DNA of 62,269 nt, the filler included, from Collodictyon triciliatum (lineage: Eukaryota): the NCBI GenBank assembly GCA_043381765.1. It is 14 parts of 14 records of this genome, joined end to end, with 100 filler letters (N's around TTAATTAATTAA, not from the genome) between each part and the next. Parts side by side here need not be neighbours in the genome. Positions count along the whole stretch, not along the records: positions 27,690 to 32,197 come from JBHJMP010006009.1; 13 more parts are not named here. One strand, given 5' to 3'. Below the pieces are notes generated by a model. It made no database searches, had not been told where the DNA came from, and saw only the letters and a program-made list of their open reading frames with translations. Shown here piece by piece: positions 4,520 through 62,143 of this stretch. A program made the position numbers and the translations under genes. How positions within the stretch are numbered: position 1 is the first letter of the stretch; every line of letters begins with the position of its first letter.

Positions 4520-4619
4520 NNNNNNNNNNNNNNNNNNNNNNNNNNNNNNNNNNNNNNNNNNNNTTAATTAATTAANNNNNNNNNNNNNNNNNNNNNNNNN
4601 NNNNNNNNNNNNNNNNNNN
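4520..4619. other. Artificial contig linker (N44-TTAATTAATTAA-N44), first of 13
   Basis: The same 100-bp linker with a six-frame-stop core occurs at 4520-4619, 9137-9236, 13755-13854, 18368-18467, 22980-23079, 27590-27689, 32198-32297, 36806-36905, 41415-41514, 46021-46120, 50634-50733, 55240-55339 and 59846-59945. The intervening contigs are all 4506-4518 bp, consistent with size-sorted concatenation. Confidence 0.98.
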
Positions 4620-8987: not shown

Positions 8988-9946
8988 GTAAGTAACTTAA
9001 AACCATGACAAGTGATGAAGAGCCGAAAAAGAAAAAAATAAAAGAAAGAAATAAAAGAAAGAAATAAAAGAAAGAAATAAAAGAAAGAAATAAAAGAAAG
9101 AAATAAAAGAAAGAAATAAAAGAAAGAAATAAAAGANNNNNNNNNNNNNNNNNNNNNNNNNNNNNNNNNNNNNNNNNNNNTTAATTAATTAANNNNNNNN
9201 NNNNNNNNNNNNNNNNNNNNNNNNNNNNNNNNNNNNCCATTTTGAGTGCTTGGAAGACAGAGTGAGGCGAAGGAAGAATGAGAGATTTGTGAATAATACA
9301 ATACCCAGCCAGTAGAAGAAAGCAACGTGAAAAAGCTCACGACACATATTGGGATGATGCCACCCTTTGACGACTACAGGCTTAAGTTTGTGAGCGAGTG
9401 GAAGGAGATATCAGGATTGAGCTGATTCTAGGGGCATGTCCAAGTGAAGTGGAAGGTAAGAAGAGATGCAAGAATGAAGACGTGATTGACAGAAGCACCG
9501 AATTGGACGGATGTCTTATTGAAGGGTGTGCGAAAAGACAAATATCGCAGGAGTAAAAAGCGGATTGTTTGATGAGGTTTAAAAATGGATGTGTTTCTAT
9601 ATAAATGGCTATTGCAGCGTAAGAGGGGGAGAAAGAGGAAATGTGTGCAAGAGGATGACAAAGGCGATTGATAGAACGAAGGGGCGAAAAAAAAAAACAA
9701 GGTCGATGAAAGGGAGATTGGGTGTGAAAGGGAAAAAATCAACTCCCTGCGGCATTGCATCATCGAGCTTAGCATGCCTATTTGAAAAAGAAGTCTTAGC
9801 TATTTGATCGGTTTAAACAATTTTCGATGTTTCTTGCTCGAAGTTATGCGGATATATAGACCGGCGCAGTGCATACAGTGCACACTCAGTGGGTGCATTC
9901 TCTCATATGTCTTCATACGCTTTTGGTATCATCTCCCTGATATTTC

Positions 9947-27689: not shown

Positions 27690-30600
27690 GAGATGCCTCG
27701 ATTCAGTTGAGAAAAATACAGATAATTTCCTGCGTATTGCTACCATTCATGAAGAGATGGGAATCATCTACCAGCAACAGGATAAGTAAGGCTCGTCTGC
27801 AATTATAAATTAAATTATGAATAATGTTTCAAAAAAGGAATTATTCTGATTTGCTTATTAAACAGAATCGATGAAGCTCTTGATGAATATAAGAAATCAC
27901 TGGAGTTGAGAATCAAACAGCTGGGCGAGAACGACTTGCAAGTGGCCCAATCACATGACCGCTTCGGAGACATCTATGTGAAGCAGTCAAAGTAATATTT
28001 AATCATCTATAGACGTTAATATTCTACCCTTTTATTTTGTAAAAATATATTTATGTTGATCAATTTTTTATGATAGGAATGAGCAAGCTCTAGATGAATA
28101 CAAAAAGGCCATGGAAATTCGCCAAAAGAAAGTCGGAAACGAGCATCCTCTTGTCGCAACATCGTACCAGAACTATGGCCATGTCTCTCTGGCTGGGAAA
28201 AAGTAACACATATTCATTCGATTAAAGACAGTTTTAAATCAATTATGGTAATTTTGAGAAATATTAATTATGATTGAATAATTAAGGTATGAAGAATCTG
28301 TTAAAAACTACGAAAAGGCGAAATCAATTCTTGAAAAATTGCTGGGAGCTAAGCATGCATCTGTTGCCTCGACAATCCAGTTTATAGCGAATGTTCATCT
28401 TGCCAGTGGAAAGTTGGAATTTCTAAATTTTTAGATTTTTGAATACAATAATTTTTACTTTCTTTCGAGTTTTGCAAAATGGGTGTGGCTTCATATCTTT
28501 TATTTGCATGGATGCTATTTAGGGTGAAGATTTTTCATAATATAATTGTAGCTATTAAATAATCAATTACTATCTTCTTTTATAGGAAAACTGAGGCCAT
28601 ATCCTCATTAAAGCAATCGCTGTATATTTTCATGTCTGCTCTTGGTGAAAATCATCCGAATGTTATGGCCTGCTATGAAATGATTGGAGACATCAGCCAC
28701 GATTTGAAGGAGTATCTATTTATCAATTATTTTTGTATTTTTAATTAAAAAGAAAAGATTAATTTATTTACCCATATTATTATCATAGCTTTAAGGGTGC
28801 TTTGGAGGCCTATAAAGAGACGCTGGATATTCGCATGAGAACACTGGGCGGAAAGCATGCTGATTATGCGACTTCCCTGGAGAATGTTGGCAGAACAAAC
28901 TTTGAACTTAAAAGGTTTATTTTTTATTTATTAAAAATCGAATATTTTGATTAATAATTTAAAAAATCCATTGAATAATATCTCATATGCTTTATTTAGA
29001 TTTGATCAAGTCGTTGAATACTTCCAGAAGGCAGCTGCTATCAGAAAGGAGACAAAGACTATCATGTCACTGAAAGAAACTCATCAAATTGACAACATTA
29101 TCCGACTCATGAAGGACAAGAAGGAGCATGAAGCCACTATTCAGCTCTACGAGACGCTTATTCATTTATTCAGCAAGCTTTATTCCATGGATTATCTTGG
29201 GATATGGAGCAGCTGCGAAGAAATCGATAAAATTTACAAGGAACTAAAACAGCATAACGAAGCAGTGGAATTCTGGGCTGGGATGAGAGACAGATTCTCT
29301 GATAAAGTTGGGTGGATTCACGCCAGAACATTAAATTCATGCGAATACTTGTCCCTCCATTCAAAAGATATCGGAATCAACAGAGAGCCTGTCGATTTTA
29401 CCAGAGTCAAGGAATTCATCAGTGAAACTATTGATGATGCAAAACTGGATGAAGAATGGAATCGTGAGCAAGTCATTGTATCATTATTCAGAATTGTCTA
29501 CATGTCAAAGACTGATGAAACCAAATCAAAGGTTGCATCTGATGCCATCACACTTTTGAATTTCATGAATGTTTCGTTCGGTGGAATGGATTTATCAAAC
29601 ATCAAAATTCCGCATGCAAATCTCAGTAACTCAATCCTTGATGGTGCAAACTTCACTGGTGCCAACTTGGATGGTATTGATTTGACGAATTCGATGCTTG
29701 GTGATTGTGATTTTGATAATACGAATCTGAAGGATGCGAAGCTTAATATTCCTCACGAAAGCATAAAAGGACATATAGATTGGGTCAACAGTCTTTGTAG
29801 TATCCATGGACTGAATGGTGAAAACTGGCTGGCCTCTGGAAGTCAAGATAAAACAATACTTATTTGGGATGTAGCCACAGGACATCAAATCAAAAAATTA
29901 GAAGGTAATACAGAAGGTGTCAATTGTGTTTGCAATATTCAAGGACCGAATGGTGAAAAGTGGCTGGCTTCCGGAAGTCGTGATAAAACAATACGTATTT
30001 GGGATATAGCCACAGGAAATCAAATCAAAGTAATAGAAGGGCACTTAAGTGATGTAATGAGTGTTTGCAGTATTCAAGGACTGAATGGTGAAAATTGGAT
30101 GGCTTCTGGAAGTGATGATAAAACAATACGCATTTGGGATATTGCCACAGGAAATCAAATCAAAAGATTAGAAGGTCATGCAGACGGTGTCACGATTATT
30201 TGTAGAATTCAAGAACCGAATGGTGAAAATTGGTTGGCCTCTGGAAGTTGGGATAATACAATACGTATTTGGGATGTAGCCACAGGAAACCAATTCAAAA
30301 CATTAAAAGGACATACATGGACTATTTATAGTATTTGCACTATTCAAGGACCGAATGGTGAATATTGGTTGGCTTCCGGAAGTCGTGATAAAACAATACG
30401 TATTTGGGATGTAACCACAGGAAACCAAATCAAAGTATTAGAAGGGCACTTGAGTGGTGTGAGGAGTGTTTGCAGTATTCAAGGACCGAATGGTGAGAAT
30501 TGGTTGGCATCTGGAAGTCGTGATAACACAATTCGAATTTGGGATGTAGCCACAGGAAACCAAATCAAAATATTAGAAGAGCATACAAGGAGTGTCAGGA

Positions 30601-31859
30601 GTTTATGTAGTATTCAAGGACAGAATGGCGCAAAATGGTTGGTTTCTGGAAGTGAGGATAATACAATGCGTATTTGGAACGTAGCTACAGGAAGCCAAAT
30701 CAAAACATTAGAAGGACATACAGGGTATGTCAATCGTCATTGCAGTATTCAAGGACCGAATGGTGAATATTGGCTGGCTTCTGGAAGTGCTGATGAAACA
30801 ATACGTATTTGGGATGTAGGCACAGGAAACCAAACACACAGCCTGCAAAAATCAGAAGTGACCTACACCCAAGGAAAATACCTCGTCAAGAAAGAAAAGC
30901 CAGACGAAGTCATCGCAGTATTCAATAGAACAAGTGATGCGATGAACATGATTGACACCAACAGAGTCCAAGATGCAAATATAGTCCAGATTATGGGCCC
31001 AAGAAAGATGCAAGGTGGAAACATCCAAGTCAGAAATGTCACAGGATTGAATCAATTCAACAAATCCCTTCTACTTTCTATTGGTGCTGCTTCCTTTGAT
31101 GCGGACTTTGTTGCCTATTGCGACCAGGGTAAGTTTACTAAGTTCCAGGCTCAAATGATGGCTGAGTGCTATGAGAATGGATGGGGTGTTGGGAAGGACA
31201 CCGAGAAGGCTTACTTCTGGAGAGTTATCGCTCCTTTGAAATTATCATTAAACTTTGGTGGATTGAAGAATTTAGCACAACAAGGCTCAAAGGATGCATT
31301 CAATGTTTTGGAAGAAATAGCTGGAATGAAGGAAAAAGATTGGAGAGAAAAACACAAGTATCCACAGGCTGCTTCCATTGTTGCTGAGTGCTATGAGAAT
31401 GGATGGGGTGTTGAGAAGGACTCTGAGAAAGAAATCGAATGGTGTGGAAAAGCTGAAAACTTTAATAAACTGAAGGAACTAGCGCAACAAAGCTCAAAAG
31501 AGGCCTTCATTTTTTTGAAAGAAATGGCTGAAATGGAGAAATATGGTGTACAAAAATACCCACAAGTTGTTTCTATTGTTGCTGAATGCTATGAAAATGG
31601 ATGGGGTGTTAATAAGGACATGGAAAAAGCAGCTGAATGGTTTGGAAAAGCTGAAGACGTTGAAAGATTGAAACAATTTGCACAACAAGGCTCAAAGGAG
31701 GCATTCATCGTTTTGAAACAAATGGCTGAAATGGGTGATGATTGGGTATATACATATCCACAGGCTGTTTCTATTGTGGCCGAATGCTATGTGAATGGAT
31801 GGGGTGTTGAGAAGGACACCGAGAAAGCAGCTGAGTGGAGACAGAAAACATCAGCTTAA
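27690..31859 (+). CDS. Multidomain repeat protein: KLC-type TPR array + helical linker + pentapeptide repeats + 8 WD40 + SEL1-like repeats (5' end missing)
   Basis: Exons <27690-27785, 27866-27991, 28077-28202, 28287-28412, 28586-28711, 28789-28914 and 29000-31859, all GT-AG and in frame. TPRs have the LG.nHp.vA.s consensus. The pentapeptide region reads MDLSNIKIPHANLSNSILDGANFTGANLDGIDL. The WD40 unit is GH...V.S.C.IQGPNGE.WLASGS.D.TIRIWD. AECYENGWGV.KD.EKA occurs four times. Confidence 0.92.
29769..30845 (+). repeat. Coding tandem repeat, 8 x 135 bp (45-aa WD40 units)
   Basis: Near-identical nucleotide blocks such as tggtgaaaattggttggcttctggaagt...aaaacaatacgtatttgggatgtagccacagga recur every 135 bp. 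Confidence 0.95.
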
Positions 31860-32811
31860 CAAGGTAAGTAATATCCATAAATGAATAATAATAATAATAA
31901 TAATAAGTGTAATATATGCATTCTTTAATCATATTCATTCTAGAACTAGAGGTTCTTAGGGCTTTTTCAAGCAGACCTTCATTTCTTTCCTAGAAGGATG
32001 CTGCATGAAAAAAGAATAAAATCATTGAGAACGATAGAAAAAACAGATTGATGTCTATTAAATCCTTCTCTCTTTTCTCTCTTTTCTCTTATTTTTTCTC
32101 TTATTTTTTCTCTTATTTTTTCTCTTATTTTTTCTCTTATTTTTTCTCTTATTTTTTCTCTTATTTTTTCTCTTATTTTTTCTCTTATTTTTTCTCTNNN
32201 NNNNNNNNNNNNNNNNNNNNNNNNNNNNNNNNNNNNNNNNNTTAATTAATTAANNNNNNNNNNNNNNNNNNNNNNNNNNNNNNNNNNNNNNNNNNNNTCA
32301 GAATGATAATTCCAGTAATGGATATATTCTTTGATTAATTGTTTGTATTTCTGGAAAATAATATATTTCTCGCCTCATTTAGTCAGATTTTGATAAATAT
32401 TAATTTTGAACTGTTTTTTGCATTAATATGCATTTGTGATTCAACATAATACGCATATTATTGTTTATTTTCACTGTAATTCAATTTAATTTATTAGTTA
32501 CGCAACATAAAGTGAATGTTTTCATTTCTTCTCACTTTGGCATTTTGTGTGATTGAATGAAGAATCCGGAAGATATCACTGCGCCAAACTACGTTTTGAT
32601 TGCATCGCTGCAGTATTGTTGTGAGTGCACGTAACCATATAATCACTGTTCTAAAATAAGAGTCACAGAGACCACCTATGCATATCGTCGTTCGAAAAAA
32701 AATAAAAGGTTTGAAAACAAGAGAATAAGCATTCCAATGGCAAACATCTAAATACGACGAAATGATATTCCGTTCCAGAAAGAAAGAAAAAAGCGTCCAT
32801 CACATAAAATA

Positions 32812-51998: not shown

Positions 51999-54900
51999 TC
52001 AAGTATCAAAGTCTTCGAATTCGTCGTCGTCGTCCTCTTCATCGTATCCGACTCCATCGTGGATGTGTGATTCTCTGTGTTCGTCATCGTATCCATATCC
52101 CGGCACAACAAACTTATCCAATGGATAATTCAAAGAAGCAACCTCCTTCCACTTCCAAATGTGTGAATACTTTGACATAGAAAATACGTGTTCAAAACGA
52201 CTGTCTTTGTGACACGAGTCCTTCACACAGGACTCCGACCCAACCACCAAAGAGTTGTACGAATCGTGCCATCGCAACTGCGTCCCGAATCCCATTCCAG
52301 AGAATGCTTCTGATGGGTGAATGCGACCTATCCGGAGGAAACTTTGGTTTGGACTCAGTGAAAATATGTGCACAGAACCAGAAGCATGTTTCGAAAGCGG
52401 GTCAGACGGGTCACCAATAAAGAGAATATCTCCAAAAACCGACAAGGAATGGCCAAAGTGCAATGAGTGGCTTGAGCATATCTTTTGGACTAAAACCCAT
52501 CCGCGGTCCATATGGAATACGTATATCGCATGCAGGTGCGGGTCGAATGGCTGGTTCCCCACAATGACCCAGTCCGAATTTATGGCGAGTGAATGGCCAA
52601 ACCGGTCTCCGTCTCGAAGATCAGCAGCAATCAGCCGAACTGGATTGCGCGCCCAATCGCCCGTGGATTTCCGACGGAACAGAAATATAGCGCCTGTGTG
52701 CTTGGACAAGGTTTTTGAATGATGGTTGGGTGCCCCAATAACAGCATATATCTCAAAGAATCCTATAGAGTATCCAAACTCTTCATCAGACTGATAGGTA
52801 CGCGAGCGGAGGGTTTCGGGCATACTAAGACAAGTGCGGTCTGAAGTAGAGCGGCTGCTGGATGGCAGTCTGGACGAAGGTGTGAACGATTTTGTGGGGG
52901 ATGGCGTCACTGGTTTAAGGAAAGCCGTGAGTTCTGTATGAAGACAGTCATATACAAACACAAAACTGCCTTCAGAATCATTTGAGTCTGCATTACTTGA
53001 AGAGGCAAAAAGGATGTTGTCTTTGATAAAAAGCCGATTTCCAAACTGTATGTTGCGCTTTGTACTGGGATGTGTAATAATCTTCACAGGATGAATGGGC
53101 ATTTCTGTAGGATGAAAAGGGAGATGTGATGTAAGTGATGCAATCGTGTATACTTCAATCGATCTGTTTTTGCATCCATCGTACGTGACGTTGTTACACT
53201 GGATGCGAGAAAGAATCAAAAAATCTTTAGAGAAGACAAGGGCTCCAACTCCATTATATCCTTGCGCGAAAAACGGATATTTGTGAGATGACGTAAAGAG
53301 AGTAGCAGACTTTGCCTCTTCTTCGCCTGTATTTTTTTTTAAAATAAAATATAAAATTCAGGTTTACGATTCAAATAGAGTACGCTTCATGAATACTATG
53401 GAATACATGGATGAGTTTATTATATATATATATAAAAGGGAGCCTGTGAAACATCATACGAATTTCTAGCATCGGTTTGGGGTAATTGCTTTTTGGGAGC
53501 CCTGCATAAAACATGTTTTCGCTATTCAGAGGCACAAGAGATGATTGTGTCATCGCCAGAGTAAATAAATTATGCCCAAATACTTGAATACGAGACCCAA
53601 ACAGCAACGCATTCTTTCGCATGTTCGACAGCGCACTTGATGAAGGGACAATTCTCTGGACCGGAACCCATCTTCCTGCCTTGAGGGAGCCAATTGAGCG
53701 ATGCCAATCGTACTCGTCTTCAAGTTCTTTATTCTCATATCGAACTCTTCCCTCATCTTTATTTGGTAATGGATACCAGTGATATATGAGAATGTAGTCT
53801 GTAGTACATGTAATGAGAACCTCTCTTTCCCAGAGGGCATTTGTAAAGATTAAATTCTTGCTCAGCCCGGTGTTTCTTTTTGGGTCATTCTTGCGTGCTT
53901 TGATGGCTTTGTACTTATCTACCTCATCCAAGGAATCAAAATCGTTCATAGAGTCCTGGATAGATAGTATCCCTGATTGGATTGCATTTTGCGAGTCTCC
54001 TGGGATGCTATAAATAACCAGATACTTGGCCATGACAGATACAAATCCCCATGGACTGAAGGATAATCCCATCACTTCCGATTCTATCGGGAATATTTTC
54101 ACGAGATTCAGGGTGTGGTATACGTAAATATGACCAGTGGATCCGATTGATATCAAGTCTGCATGGACTGCCAGCGCTATTCCGAATCTTTGGTCTTGGG
54201 CATTTATCGGGTGATATTCGCCTGCAAATAATGGGTCCGGCTTGCCGTATTGAAAGGTATGTTCTGCGGCGAGGCGATAGCGATAAACAGCACCAACACC
54301 TAGTGAGAAGAATGGCGCCGAAATCCATACATTCTGATGAAATCTGTCGATAACAACAACATGACCAAAAGATGCATTGTGAAGTTTAGACTCGTCTTCA
54401 CTTCGTTGGGGTTGCTTGTATGTAGCCCCGTTTTCCTCTGGACCAGCGTTCGGTGTTGGGTTACGTTCGTTATCAAAATCAACGTTATGGTCAATATGTA
54501 ATGATTGTTCACCGTCAGGCCACGGCGGCTCAAGGATAGCCTGCTCCTCCCAAAGTCCCTCACTCTTTTCTGCATACACAAACACAGCTCCGCTGCTGAT
54601 GAGAACGGGCGTGTATACTTGACGCGAGTAGATAAACCGAGGCGCACTTATGTAAAGAGCATCGTCCGAAAATGCCAGGTAAGCACCGAATCCGCTTTTC
54701 TCATGGTCGTCAGTGAGTGAAAGCATCGTTGGAGTATCGCGCCTGCAAAAGAAATCCGGGCTGAAAACTCCTGTCTTTCTCGGGCTGCTGTTAGAGTCGG
54801 GCTTCGGGGTGAGGCTGAATACAAGAACGTGGTTGCTTGAGGCTTGTTGACTGGCATGGATTTTGCCTGGAGAAACGGCGATGTGGGTGGGACTGATGGC

Positions 54901-59845: not shown

Positions 59846-60141
59846 NNNNNNNNNNNNNNNNNNNNNNNNNNNNNNNNNNNNNNNNNNNNTTAATTAATTA
59901 ANNNNNNNNNNNNNNNNNNNNNNNNNNNNNNNNNNNNNNNNNNNNTTTTTTTTATTTTTCCCCCTTATTTTTTTTTAATTTTTCTTTTTTTTTTTTCCCT
60001 TTTCCCTTTTCCCTTTTTTTTTTTTTTTTTTTTTTTTTTGAGCACACATAGACATCCCAAGTTAAAATAGTCGATACGAGATGGTAGGCCACCGAAAAAT
60101 TTATAAAGCTGAGTCTGCATGGCGTCTTTGATTTAGCCTCT

Positions 60142-62143
60142 TCAATTTATCGAGCACGCAGCATGATTTGCGGCTCTCTGATTGATTCTTGAATCTTCAT
60201 CTGGTCTTGGCAAAGTAAAACCATCGCCTTGGTCATGCTGTTCATCGCATAAATCGCTGGTATCACCCACCGAATATTCAAATGATGGGATAAAGTAGAT
60301 CTACATGTAAATTGGGTTGATTAAATAACGAGCAGGATGCAAATACAATATGTTTCCTTATTTATTATTAATCCCACATTGTTGTTGCTGACATCCAATA
60401 TTTCGAGTCGATGGAGTTGATTAACGAACACAGGCAAACATGTCAGCTAGTATTTTTCGTTTGTATCTTCAATTTAGAATAATGTTTATTTCAATGAGGC
60501 TTAAAATAAGAAAGTGCGAATATGTGCAAACAGAGGTTTTTATCACACATTCAAATATCAGATTATGCTAAATGTGTTCATTAAGCATATTTTATTGATA
60601 ATTAAAAAGAAAAAATTATCATTCAATTCATCTTCATTTAGTCAAAATCGAAAAAATAATAAAAAAGCAAAAAATAAAAAAATAAGGTGAGGTGTTCCAT
60701 GTTCATGAGTTGGCTATCTTGTATGAATATATTTTCCCCTTGCATTATACCTTGTTGCGACTTAGAGAAAGGTGAGTGAGACTTGTCAGGAGAGAAATTC
60801 TTTCTGGCAATGCTGTCAACCCCATTCTATAAAGACTCAGTGATTGCAGCCCCATTTGATATTTGTTGGGTGCCCAAGTCGGCTCTATGATGTCCTCAAT
60901 CTAATGAAAAGTGATGACGGATTGTTACAGATTTCGTTTGTCCCCTTTATTATAAAAAATACAAGTTCCTACAAAGTCATATAGTTGCAGCTTTTTGAGG
61001 GATTCAGCGACGGTCATACAACCCGGACGCGATTCTGATTGATTCTCCCAGCACGGTAGATTTGTGATTCCACGAGGCGCTGTTCTGATATCAGGATTTG
61101 AGTTATCCACGTCGACAACAAAATTATGTAGCTTTGTAAGATGCACTAATTGCGGAGGAAGCTGCTCGATCTATTTCAACAAGACAATAAAAAAAAAACT
61201 TTCTTCACAAACAACAATATCTCGTTTATGAAATTTATGATATGTTCTGTTTTGTTCAAAGTGGACGCACCGGGTTGCCATGAATCCAAAACTTAGTCAA
61301 GCAGACCAAGAGAGATATCTGAGGAGGTAGATGAGAAATGAAGTTGTCGGATATATCAACCTCTTCAAGAGATTTGAGGCGAGATACATCTGAAGACAAG
61401 AGCATTAATTGGTTGGATGACATCTTCAATCTTTTGAGGCTTTCGAGATGAAAAATGTCAGGAGGAAGCACAGATATTTGATGTCCAGCAATGAAGTCCT
61501 CAAGACGTGTCAATCCCGATACTTGGGACGGGATATTGGAGAGTTTGCAATTGTAGAGGTTCAAATGAACAAGAGCGCCAAGCAACGAGAGTGCTGGGCT
61601 CAGGGATGATATTTTATTGTGCGATGCGTTCAGTAGACTCAGACTTGTTATTTCAAATATTGCTTCCGGTATGGATGATGCTCTGGCATAAGAAATATCG
61701 AGATGCTCAAGAGCCATCAAATTCGAGAAGCTGGCAGAAAGTGAACGAAACGGATTGTAAGACAGGTTGAGCACTTTGAGTCTTGGCAGAGTAATGATCG
61801 AAGCTGGAACATGAACAAAGATGTTATTTGAGATATCGATGCTTGTCAAGTTCGTCAACTGTGAAACTTCAGCTTGGAGTGATATTAGTTTGTTTTTGTG
61901 AACATCGAGTTCCTCAAGTCGGATTAGCTTCGATATCTCTGAGGATAGCGAGGATAAACAGTTGTTGAAGAGAGAGACAGATATGAGCTGGTCCAACTCA
62001 TACACACCCGTCGGAATCCAGGATAGGTTCCTTGAGTCTAGGCCGAGAAATGTGCATCGCTCCAGCGCCTTGAAAATGCCTCGCGGCTCGTAGAATGGCT
62101 GCAGCCTCTTCAGCTCCCGGAGACTCGCCTCGCGGTTCAGCAT
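60142..62143 (-). CDS. Leucine-rich repeat protein (multi-exon, ends uncertain)
   Basis: About 11 typical 23-aa LRRs (LxxLxLxxNxLxxLPxxI) in 61271-62143. Further LRR exons lie near 60975-61170, 60750-60900 and 60378-60446. Confidence 0.88.

Follow-up and report, generated by a model that had tools for sequence, protein, structure and literature searches.

The closest described counterparts of the gene studied here come from brown algae. In Ectocarpus, the passages of Zambounis et al. (2012, PMC3341825) on the NB-ARC-TPR genes describe a TPR domain built of frame-neutral exons of 126 nt (42 aa), inactivated TPR exons lying in introns, and paralogue arrays that cannot be aligned. A related layout is found in brown-algal ROCO genes, for which the sections of Teng et al. 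(2024, PMC11378527) on their exons report 72-bp phase-2 LRR exons and documented alternative splicing. A further point of comparison is the pairing of DUF4062 with NACHT, which the pertinent part of a recent preprint (10.64898/2026.05.01.722283) notes for human NWD1, NWD2, TEP1, and NPHP3, TEP1 being active as an NADase. Our literature search on TPR exons found nothing beyond the Ectocarpus NB-ARC-TPR paper, and a search on NACHT in Diphylleia rotans found none.

Here, we analyzed a gene with one TPR unit per exon from Collodictyon triciliatum (GCA_043381765.1). The window, i.e., the whole stretch of 62,269 nucleotides that was analyzed, is a chain of ~4.5-kb contigs with spacers of the form N44-TTAATTAATTAA-N44 between them. 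The original prediction had proposed that five equal TPR exons form a combinatorial module for ligand binding. We argue that they are probably an old and fixed array instead.

Results

Exon-intron structure of the cassette

The five exons proposed in the original prediction were confirmed at exactly 126 nt each (5/5), with AG before and GT after every one of them and a single open frame out of the three forward frames. The parts of the cassette are as follows.

27691..27785, forward strand: partial exon with TPR unit 0; open frame, phase-2 end, GT donor at 27786, junction codon AAA; joint 27785>27866 in runs X6 and X7
27866..27991, forward strand: TPR unit 1, 126-nt phase 2-2 exon; TPR_12 E 2.2e-5; RNA joints on both sides
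28077..28202, forward strand: TPR unit 2, 126-nt phase 2-2 exon; TPR_12 E 1.2e-6; AF2 hairpin; RNA joints on both sides
28287..28412, forward strand: TPR unit 3, 126-nt phase 2-2 exon; TPR_12 E 1.2e-5; RNA joints on both sides
28586..28711, forward strand: TPR unit 4, 126-nt phase 2-2 exon; TPR_12 E 3.1e-4; RNA joints on both sides
28789..28914, forward strand: TPR unit 5, 126-nt phase 2-2 exon; TPR_12 E 8.6e-7; RNA joints on both sides
27786..28999, forward strand: span of six AT-rich GT..AG introns (27786-27865, 27992-28076, 28203-28286, 28413-28585, 28712-28788, 28915-28999); splicing model and RNA joints

When spliced, the frame (27691-27785, the five exons, and the last exon) comprises 3585 nt, corresponding to 1194 codons and one terminal stop. 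All six introns are of the GT..AG type and fall after the second codon base, so that the phase 2 claimed for the whole cassette, flanking exons included, holds throughout. The codons at the junctions encode, in order, K, K, K, K, D, and R; four of the six are AAA or AAG, and exon ends are A-rich. Introns measure 80, 85, 84, 173, 77, and 85 nt and have a GC content of 0.14-0.25, compared to 0.39-0.45 in the exons. The arithmetic behind the earlier statement that losing or repeating any one of the five exons would preserve the frame is likewise correct. Two details needed revision. The large exon starts at 29000 rather than 29001, and the preceding partial exon, while keeping phase 2, is partial only because the contig ends at 27690, which leaves the gene incomplete at its 5′ side. 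This exon (unit 0) aligns with the unit preceding unit 1 in two D. rotans homologues, P0073 and P0100. No other piece of the window contained sequence of this gene family. Seven long ORFs in other pieces had Pfam matches limited to FG-GAP_2 and LRR families, and there were 0 Rfam matches in the whole window.

TPR identity and predicted fold

TPR_12 was the top Pfam family for all five exon translations (E 3e-4 to 9e-7). The scores of single exons (21.3-29.5 bits) all lay under the cut-off of 30.1 bits, as expected for a 41-residue piece compared with a 77-position model. TPR_10 also matched three of the five exons, and exon 2 gave a weak match to the TPR_NPHP3 model (E 7e-4). On the collinear homologues P0073 and P0100, TPR_12 reached 136.5 and 136.2 bits, respectively. 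The AF2 model of exon 2 consists of a helix (2-19), a turn, and a second helix (24-40), with a pLDDT of 85.2. As modeled, one exon encodes one helix-turn-helix hairpin of a KLC-type TPR. Each hairpin would combine helix B of one TPR with helix A of the next, and every intron would be placed in the turn between hairpins.

RNA evidence

Splicing was assessed with assembled contigs of other public runs, which represent other organisms or paralogues and in which rare isoforms are lost. Exact joints were present for five of the six predicted introns in both X6 and X7 and for three in X12, while X1 covered 19 of 30 bins with zero joints (0/6); each intron was supported by a joint in at least one run. 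The five-exon cassette is real and routinely spliced.

Six of the best 15 of 75 joints corresponded to the predicted introns. Whole-exon skips or joints between non-adjacent exons, the isoforms that the original prediction had suggested looking for in RNA, did not occur among these best 15 joints of the RNA-derived contigs. All units were also present in the D. rotans transcripts P0073, P0223, and P0100, which are transcriptome proteins reflecting major isoforms only. The joint 28192>28312 (CT..AC), seen in two contigs of X6 and one of X7, is read here, though without certainty, as coming from a spliced paralogue whose sequence departs from that of the gene near the junction. Contigs matching the gene at 85-99% numbered 509 in X6 and 478 in X7, and a large paralogue family probably exists. 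In a search of public sequencing runs, no run contained at least half of the words, the best share being 0.09.

Divergence of the TPR units

Amino acid identity among the five exons ranged from 0.17 to 0.37, and identity at third positions was 0.30 against 0.26 expected from composition. Synonymous divergence (dS) was uncomputable (saturated) in six of the ten exon pairs, and the remaining four had values of 1.67 or more; dN/dS was computed and was uninformative because of this saturation. The tandem-repeat search (TRF) left the TPR cassette undetected, whereas it did detect the WD40 and Sel1-like arrays further downstream. Introns showed no similarity to each other at E <0.03 and shared only short AT-rich words. 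A tblastn search with the spliced protein yielded no HSP within any intron, and the long intron 4, read in three frames, contained no TPR-like sequence. To judge from sequence divergence, the five TPR exons separated anciently.

Homologues and collinearity

The nearest proteins were D. rotans transcripts (39-46% identical). At ~40% identity, residues 1-440 of the spliced product aligned with residues 1132-1571 of P0073 and 246-670 of P0100 with no net gap, and a MAFFT alignment of all three had zero gaps in the TPR part. Unit i was best matched by unit i in eight of eight cases for P0073 and in seven of eight, plus one tie, for P0100; unit 5 was the most conserved (identity 0.57 and 0.55, respectively). 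This comparison covers two close homologues, both transcriptome proteins showing major isoforms only, and the alignment indicates that array length and order are fixed between them and the gene. P0074, a third and more distant homologue, differs after unit 4 by a large insertion or a duplicated segment, which shows that the repeat arm is not immutable at a larger scale.

The full-length homologue P0073 provides the context for the gene. Its CH domain (E 6e-11) is followed by DUF4062 (E 8e-11, 42.5 bits against a cut-off of 24.7), a NACHT-like NTPase, and then the same repeat arm. Residues 618-845 matched NACHT, nSTAND1, and NPHP3_N, with NACHT at 25.3 bits, just below its cut-off of 26.7 bits; NB-ARC was absent among the six Pfam families listed at E ≤0.01. 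The receptor context suggested originally fits this arrangement.

A word-index protein search with P0073 1120-1580 gave 17 matches, of which P0073 itself was the sole family member and the rest generic TPR proteins. Metagenome contigs were scanned once with a single protein and once with a three-sequence alignment, which gave 49 and 227 pattern matches, respectively, 0 of them confirmed by tblastn. In the ESM Atlas, the best value for residues 1-200 was 0.79, under the lead level, and only bacterial TPR-plus-pentapeptide clusters were returned.

Downstream repeats in the terminal exon

The terminal exon is a single exon of 2.86 kb containing three TPR-like units, pentapeptide repeats, eight WD40 blades, and Sel1-like repeats.

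29000..29377, forward strand: TPR-like units 6-8, three 42-residue helix pairs without introns, in the same register; AF2 helices 2-18/24-39, 43-60/66-81, 85-103/108-123, mean pLDDT 85.5
29378..29579, forward strand: linker of three helices ahead of the beta-helix; AF2 model; kept in P0073, P0100, and P0074
29580..29750, forward strand: pentapeptide-repeat segment; PF00805 matches; one AF2 strand per five residues from residue 197
29751..30830, forward strand: eight WD40 units, each exactly 135 nt (45 aa) long; WD40 E 9e-71; TRF period 135, 7.9 copies, 79% matches
31152..31859, forward strand: four Sel1-like units at a spacing of 74, 66, and 66 residues, with the stop at 31857-31859; Sel1 E 2.8e-19; TRF period 198, 2.9 copies

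A word-index search with the first 260 residues of this exon returned 71 matches, all of them PF00805 and all on the pentapeptide part, with no member of the gene family among them. Between WD40 units, identity was 0.79 at the nucleotide and 0.66 at the amino acid level, with a dS of 0.39 and a third-position identity of 0.75 compared to 0.31 expected. Variation was confined to few columns (4, 9-11, 13-15, and 32 of the 45-residue unit), with up to six residues at the variable columns. The intron-less WD40 array is the recently amplified and still varied part of the gene.

Discussion

We propose, with a probability of roughly 0.7, that the cassette is an old and fixed relic of tandem exon duplication that serves as a rigid scaffold rather than as a shuffling device. 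It would have arisen in the distant past, when one exon was duplicated in tandem together with its intron, and would have been inherited as a fixed array ever since; its frame symmetry would then be a by-product of duplication history and not a device in present use. A conserved sequence of its own at every position, together with the same length and order in homologues, makes a rigid solenoid the most likely form of the cassette. Such a solenoid would bridge the distance between a STAND NTPase and distal repeats of the pentapeptide, WD40, and Sel1-like types, which in turn would sense a ligand or restrain the NTPase. As the 5′ part of the gene lies off the contig and outside the window, we infer its NTPase from the relatives with DUF4062 and a NACHT-like domain.

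That the exons are instead units of a combinatorial ligand-binding module, diversified by alternative splicing or exon shuffling as originally predicted, is unlikely. The idea draws on the equal length and symmetry of all five exons and on their nature as self-contained hairpins, since dropping one would rejoin helices in register. Exons of 126 nt have moreover been tied to shuffling in the Ectocarpus passages (PMC3341825) and, in the title of Teng 2023, to alternative splicing; the relatives are NLR-like, and related transcripts are plentiful in X6 and X7. However, saturated synonymous sites, mutually unlike introns, the lack of pseudo-exons, and the collinearity of units speak against diversification of this kind. 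The units are positionally orthologous in two homologues of identical array length, the best 15 of the 75 joints lack an exon-skipping event, and the two metagenome-contig scans yielded no related genomic locus. Still less probable is a variant in which a freshwater protist akin to collodictyonids expresses a large family of NACHT receptors with DUF4062 (a TIR-like NADase), to which the cassette belongs. The hairpin-per-exon TPR modules of this family would be mixed through low-level exon skipping or swaps among paralogues, and a hypervariable WD40 array would accompany them. If true, the exon-modular design that has been proposed for brown-algal receptors would have been invented independently in a third supergroup of eukaryotes.

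Two other histories concern the origin of the layout. The 126-nt hairpin exon could be ancestral, stemming from a KLC/NPHP3-type TPR gene, in which case brown-algal NB-ARC-TPR genes, and perhaps animal genes as well, would have inherited it too. We regard this as improbable, even though the exons here are very old, their length is identical to that in Ectocarpus (126 nt / 42 aa; PMC3341825), and exon 2 weakly resembles the NPHP3 TPR model. One intron per 42-residue repeat necessarily results in 126 nt, so equal length is no proof; the Ectocarpus passages (PMC3341825) give neither intron phase nor intron position within the repeat; and the NTPases differ, being NB-ARC in Ectocarpus and NACHT-like in the relatives of this gene. 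Least probable of all, in our view, is independent intron gain, in which parallel insertions into a recurring sequence would have struck the same place in pre-existing repeats. The junctions do lie in a recurring lysine-rich turn, with AAA or AAG in most junction codons, the introns are mutually dissimilar, and units 6-8 have none. Yet six hits at one codon position and one phase are less parsimonious than one copied intron, and dissimilar introns are expected after long divergence anyway. The intron-less 3′ part could equally well be explained by 3′-biased intron loss, which is an established phenomenon.

The fixed-scaffold reading has two implications. A symmetric repeat-per-exon layout alone is no sign of ongoing shuffling. 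In addition, a multi-repeat receptor-like family, probably of the DUF4062-NACHT kind, is placed in a little-studied protist lineage, which may be of interest for tracing how NLR-like immunity spread among eukaryotes.

Comparison with known systems

Akin to the DUF4062-NACHT proteins NPHP3, NWD1, NWD2, and TEP1, as far as the preprint passages describe them, the relative P0073 combines DUF4062 with a NACHT-like NTPase behind it, and its TPR and WD40 repeats come after both. The NPHP3_N and TPR_NPHP3 models are weakly matched, and the gene in the window has the C-terminal TPR/WD40 arm. It differs from these proteins in that TPR and WD40 occur together, with pentapeptide and Sel1-like repeats in addition, and in the N-terminal CH domain of P0073. 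The WD40 part, but not the TPR cassette, resembles the arrays of WRAP and fungal NLR-type proteins in that its tandem units are of equal length and highly identical in nucleotide sequence, with few variable columns. The array here belongs to a eukaryote and lies behind TPR and pentapeptide repeats.

With the ROCO LRR genes, as presented in the sections cited above, the gene shares one repeat per exon, phase-2 introns throughout, and frame neutrality. It is distinguished by a TPR instead of an LRR, by its predicted NTPase where the ROCO signaling domain is a GTPase, and by the lack of alternative splicing among the best 15 of 75 joints.

The likeness to brown-algal NB-ARC-TPR genes drawn in the original prediction is accurate: according to the passages of PMC3341825, STAND-type candidate receptors of Ectocarpus likewise have one TPR unit per frame-neutral exon of 126 nt / 42 aa. 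In contrast to what those passages report, pseudo-exons are absent from the introns here, and the units of the array keep the order that they have in its homologues. Moreover, the NTPase of the relatives is NACHT-like with DUF4062 and not NB-ARC, the arm extends into pentapeptide, WD40, and Sel1-like repeats, and the nearest proteins come from D. rotans and not from a brown alga. The brown-algal design of 126-nt TPR exons would here be an old fixed scaffold, with the intron-less WD40 array as the variable part.

Exon structure and splicing of the TPR cassette

The five consecutive TPR exons (27866-27991, 28077-28202, 28287-28412, 28586-28711 and 28789-28914) are each exactly 126 nt long, preceded by AG and followed by GT, and have only one open forward frame apiece. 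Splicing them to the partial exon 27691-27785 on one side and the terminal exon 29000-31859 on the other yields an open frame of 3585 nt, comprising 1194 codons and one stop at the end. The six introns (80, 85, 84, 173, 77 and 85 nt) each split a codon after its second base, and their GC content is 0.14-0.25 compared to 0.39-0.45 in the exons. The exon lengths, AG/GT borders, single open frame and splice product confirm the five equal phase-2 exons of the original prediction.

Splicing was checked by aligning contigs of public sequencing runs to the stretch at a likeness of at least 85%. Joints exactly at the predicted GT..AG introns were observed for five of six introns in runs X6 and X7 and for three of six in the metatranscriptome X12, and every intron was supported in at least one run; contigs of run X1 gave no joint at the six predicted introns. 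We took X6 and X7 as RNA because they contain spliced forms, their RNA status being otherwise a guess. Unspliced pieces were present too, e.g., a 157-base exact match in X1 spanning the border of exon 3 and intron 4.

Pfam assigned all five exon translations best to TPR_12 (E 2.2e-5, 1.2e-6, 1.2e-5, 3.1e-4 and 8.6e-7 for exons 1-5), with every exon taken singly scoring below the 30.1-bit cut-off. TPR_10 matched three of the five, and the 31-residue partial exon (27691-27785) had no Pfam match. An AlphaFold2 model of exon 2, for which the five exons served as alignment, comprised a helix at residues 2-19, a four-residue turn and a helix at 24-40 (pLDDT 85.2). Each exon thus encodes one full helical hairpin, with the introns lying in the inter-hairpin turns. 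As exon residues 2-40 fall on Pfam model positions 20-58 of 77, we infer that in canonical TPR numbering an exon would combine helix B of a repeat with helix A of its successor.

The remainder of the gene and its contig

The 42-residue period continues into the 2860-nt terminal exon as three intron-less helix pairs (AlphaFold2 helices 2-18/24-39, 43-60/66-81 and 85-103/108-123; mean pLDDT 85.5). Three more helices follow, and then a pentapeptide-repeat beta-helix with a strand every five residues in the model; PF00805 was carried by 71 of 71 protein matches to the first part of this exon. Downstream are eight WD40 units, each exactly 45 residues long (WD40 E 9e-71), and four Sel1-like units (Sel1 E 2.8e-19). 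The latter form a 198-nt tandem array (31261-31838, 2.9 copies, 76% matches), which is likewise fairly recent relative to the TPR exons.

Fourteen small contigs of ~4.5 kb make up the window, their lengths falling from 4519 to 4506 bases apart from a last, cut piece; between them lie spacers of the form N44-TTAATTAATTAA-N44, at 4520-4619, 9137-9236 and on to 59846-59945. Since the piece carrying the cassette (27690-32197) is an entire small contig, the gene is truncated on the left at 27690, and the pieces next to it in the window do not flank it in the genome. GC content varies between 0.25 and 0.58 among 2-kb bins of the window, which indicates that adjoining pieces are not genomic neighbours and may stem from more than one organism. 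A perfect 12-nt microsatellite (9.7 copies, 32082-32197) reaches the contig end ~220 bases past the stop codon and probably explains the assembly break at 32197. In tblastn searches of the window, none of 11 HSPs of the spliced protein, and none of 27 of its three homologues, lay beyond the cassette's piece. Four further long ORFs of other pieces had no Pfam match. The repeat arrays were as follows.

29751-30830: WD40 array, eight units of 135 nt, within one exon
51999-53354 (-): FG-GAP_2 repeats in a long ORF on another piece, Pfam E 1.5e-16
61256-62140 (-): LRR_4/LRR_8 repeats in a long ORF on another piece, Pfam E 2e-23

Relatives in Diphylleia rotans

HMMER, run in full against 1.84 billion representatives, returned 313,751 matches, mostly WD40 proteins. 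The top matches were P0073 (2619 aa, 1602 bits, 46% identity) and P0074, with P0100 lower in the ranking; all three belong to the Diphylleia rotans transcriptome in EukProt. Among 224 proteins compared, the TPR-plus-helical part was matched solely by P0073, its near-identical isoform P0223, P0100 and P0074; beyond these, matches were limited to the exon of the query itself and 37 residues of pentapeptide repeat.

Within its first 1110 residues, P0073 has a CH domain (E 5.9e-11), DUF4062 (E 7.6e-11, above cut-off) and a P-loop NTPase to which the models NACHT (25.3 bits against a cut-off of 26.7), nSTAND1 and NPHP3_N matched. According to a 2026 preprint (10.64898/2026.05.01.722283), DUF4062 is a TIR-like NADase domain that adjoins NACHT in human NWD1, NWD2, TEP1 and NPHP3, with activity reported for TEP1. 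By homology, as the gene's own 5' part is missing from the contig, the window gene is probably the repeat arm of a DUF4062-NACHT-type STAND protein.

Age and order of the TPR units

Pairwise identity among the five exons is 17-37% for residues and 33-53% for bases, and their third codon positions agree at 0.30 versus 0.26 expected from composition. Nei-Gojobori dS was not computable in six of ten pairs and was 1.67-2.40 in the other four. Tandem Repeats Finder detected the WD40 and Sel1-like arrays and missed the TPR cassette. The introns resembled one another only in short AT-rich words (best E 0.03), and tblastn of the spliced protein revealed no pseudo-exons in any of the six, nor did the three frames of the long intron 4 show any. 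Spliced residues 1-440 align to P0073 1132-1571 and P0100 246-670 with zero net gap, and a MAFFT alignment of the three had no gaps in the TPR part. With the sequences divided at the exon borders into units of 42 residues, the same-position unit was the best match in 8/8 cases for the window gene against P0073 and for P0073 against P0100, and in 7/8 for the window gene against P0100 (unit 4 tied at 0.31). Array length and order have thus been kept since divergence to ~40% identity. In P0074, a more distant relative, unit 4 is followed by a large insertion that looks like a duplicated larger segment and not a 42-residue unit. It aligned in 10 matched stretches, with WD40 blocks at ~600-970, 1400-1580 and 1840-2280. 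The entire module from helical linker to WD40 thus seems to occur several times in P0074; modules and not single TPR units would have been duplicated.

The cassette had been proposed to be a combinatorial ligand-binding module diversified by exon shuffling or alternative splicing. Shuffling is not supported, given the saturated exon divergence, the lack of pseudo-exons and the positional order kept in P0073 and P0100. Regarding splicing, six of the 15 best-supported of 75 joints were predicted introns, and none of the 15 joined a donor to a non-adjacent acceptor; as contigs drop rare variants, exon skipping may still occur at a low level. The joint 28192>28312 (two contigs in X6, one in X7) has CT..AC ends and omits 119 bases between points slightly within exons 2 and 3, and 28914>29013 has 13 other letters in between; both fit spliced paralogues diverging near a junction. 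A further joint, 28663>29559, has just 26 letters on one side. The 10 residues that distinguish the isoforms P0073 and P0223 all lie outside the TPR part. With a probability of about 0.7, the cassette is an old, fixed, constitutively spliced relic: ancient tandem exon duplication would have produced the array, which would now form the proximal solenoid in a receptor arm made of several repeat types.

The WD40 array as the recently amplified part

The WD40 units share 0.79 of nucleotides and 0.66 of amino acids, with third-position identity of 0.75 versus 0.31 expected, dS of 0.39, median dN/dS of 0.68 and up to six residue types at a few columns; Tandem Repeats Finder also reported a 405-nt higher-order period. 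This is the signature of recent amplification with change concentrated at few positions. WD40 arms of fungal and bacterial NLR-like proteins are likewise described as recently amplified and varying at few positions, and the window array resembles them in both respects. It is possibly a diversifying propeller inside one exon; if the gene has any diversifying recognition surface, the intron-less WD40 units would provide it, rather than the TPR cassette.

Comparison with known systems

Zambounis et al. (PMC3341825) report that 13 of 24 Ectocarpus NB-ARC genes build their TPR domain from 126-nt exons of 42 aa, 124 of them in all; the introns of these genes contain inactivated exons, and their paralogue arrays are unalignable. 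The window gene shares the 126-nt TPR exons. In contrast, its introns hold no inactivated TPR exons and its array is collinear with P0073 and P0100. Brown-algal ROCO genes have alternatively spliced 72-bp phase-2 LRR exons, as stated by Teng et al. 2024 (PMC11378527), who cite a 2023 paper on NB-ARC-TPR alternative splicing. The original interpretation is only partly supported: the layout is like the brown-algal one, whereas of the dynamic features for which the brown-algal genes stand out, inactivated exons and altered arrays were looked for in the window gene and not found, and no whole-exon skip was among the 15 best-supported joints. One TPR per exon is itself an already known kind of layout. 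New here are the lineage, the nearest proteins being those of Diphylleia rotans, and the type of NTPase, which is probably NACHT-like and accompanied by DUF4062.
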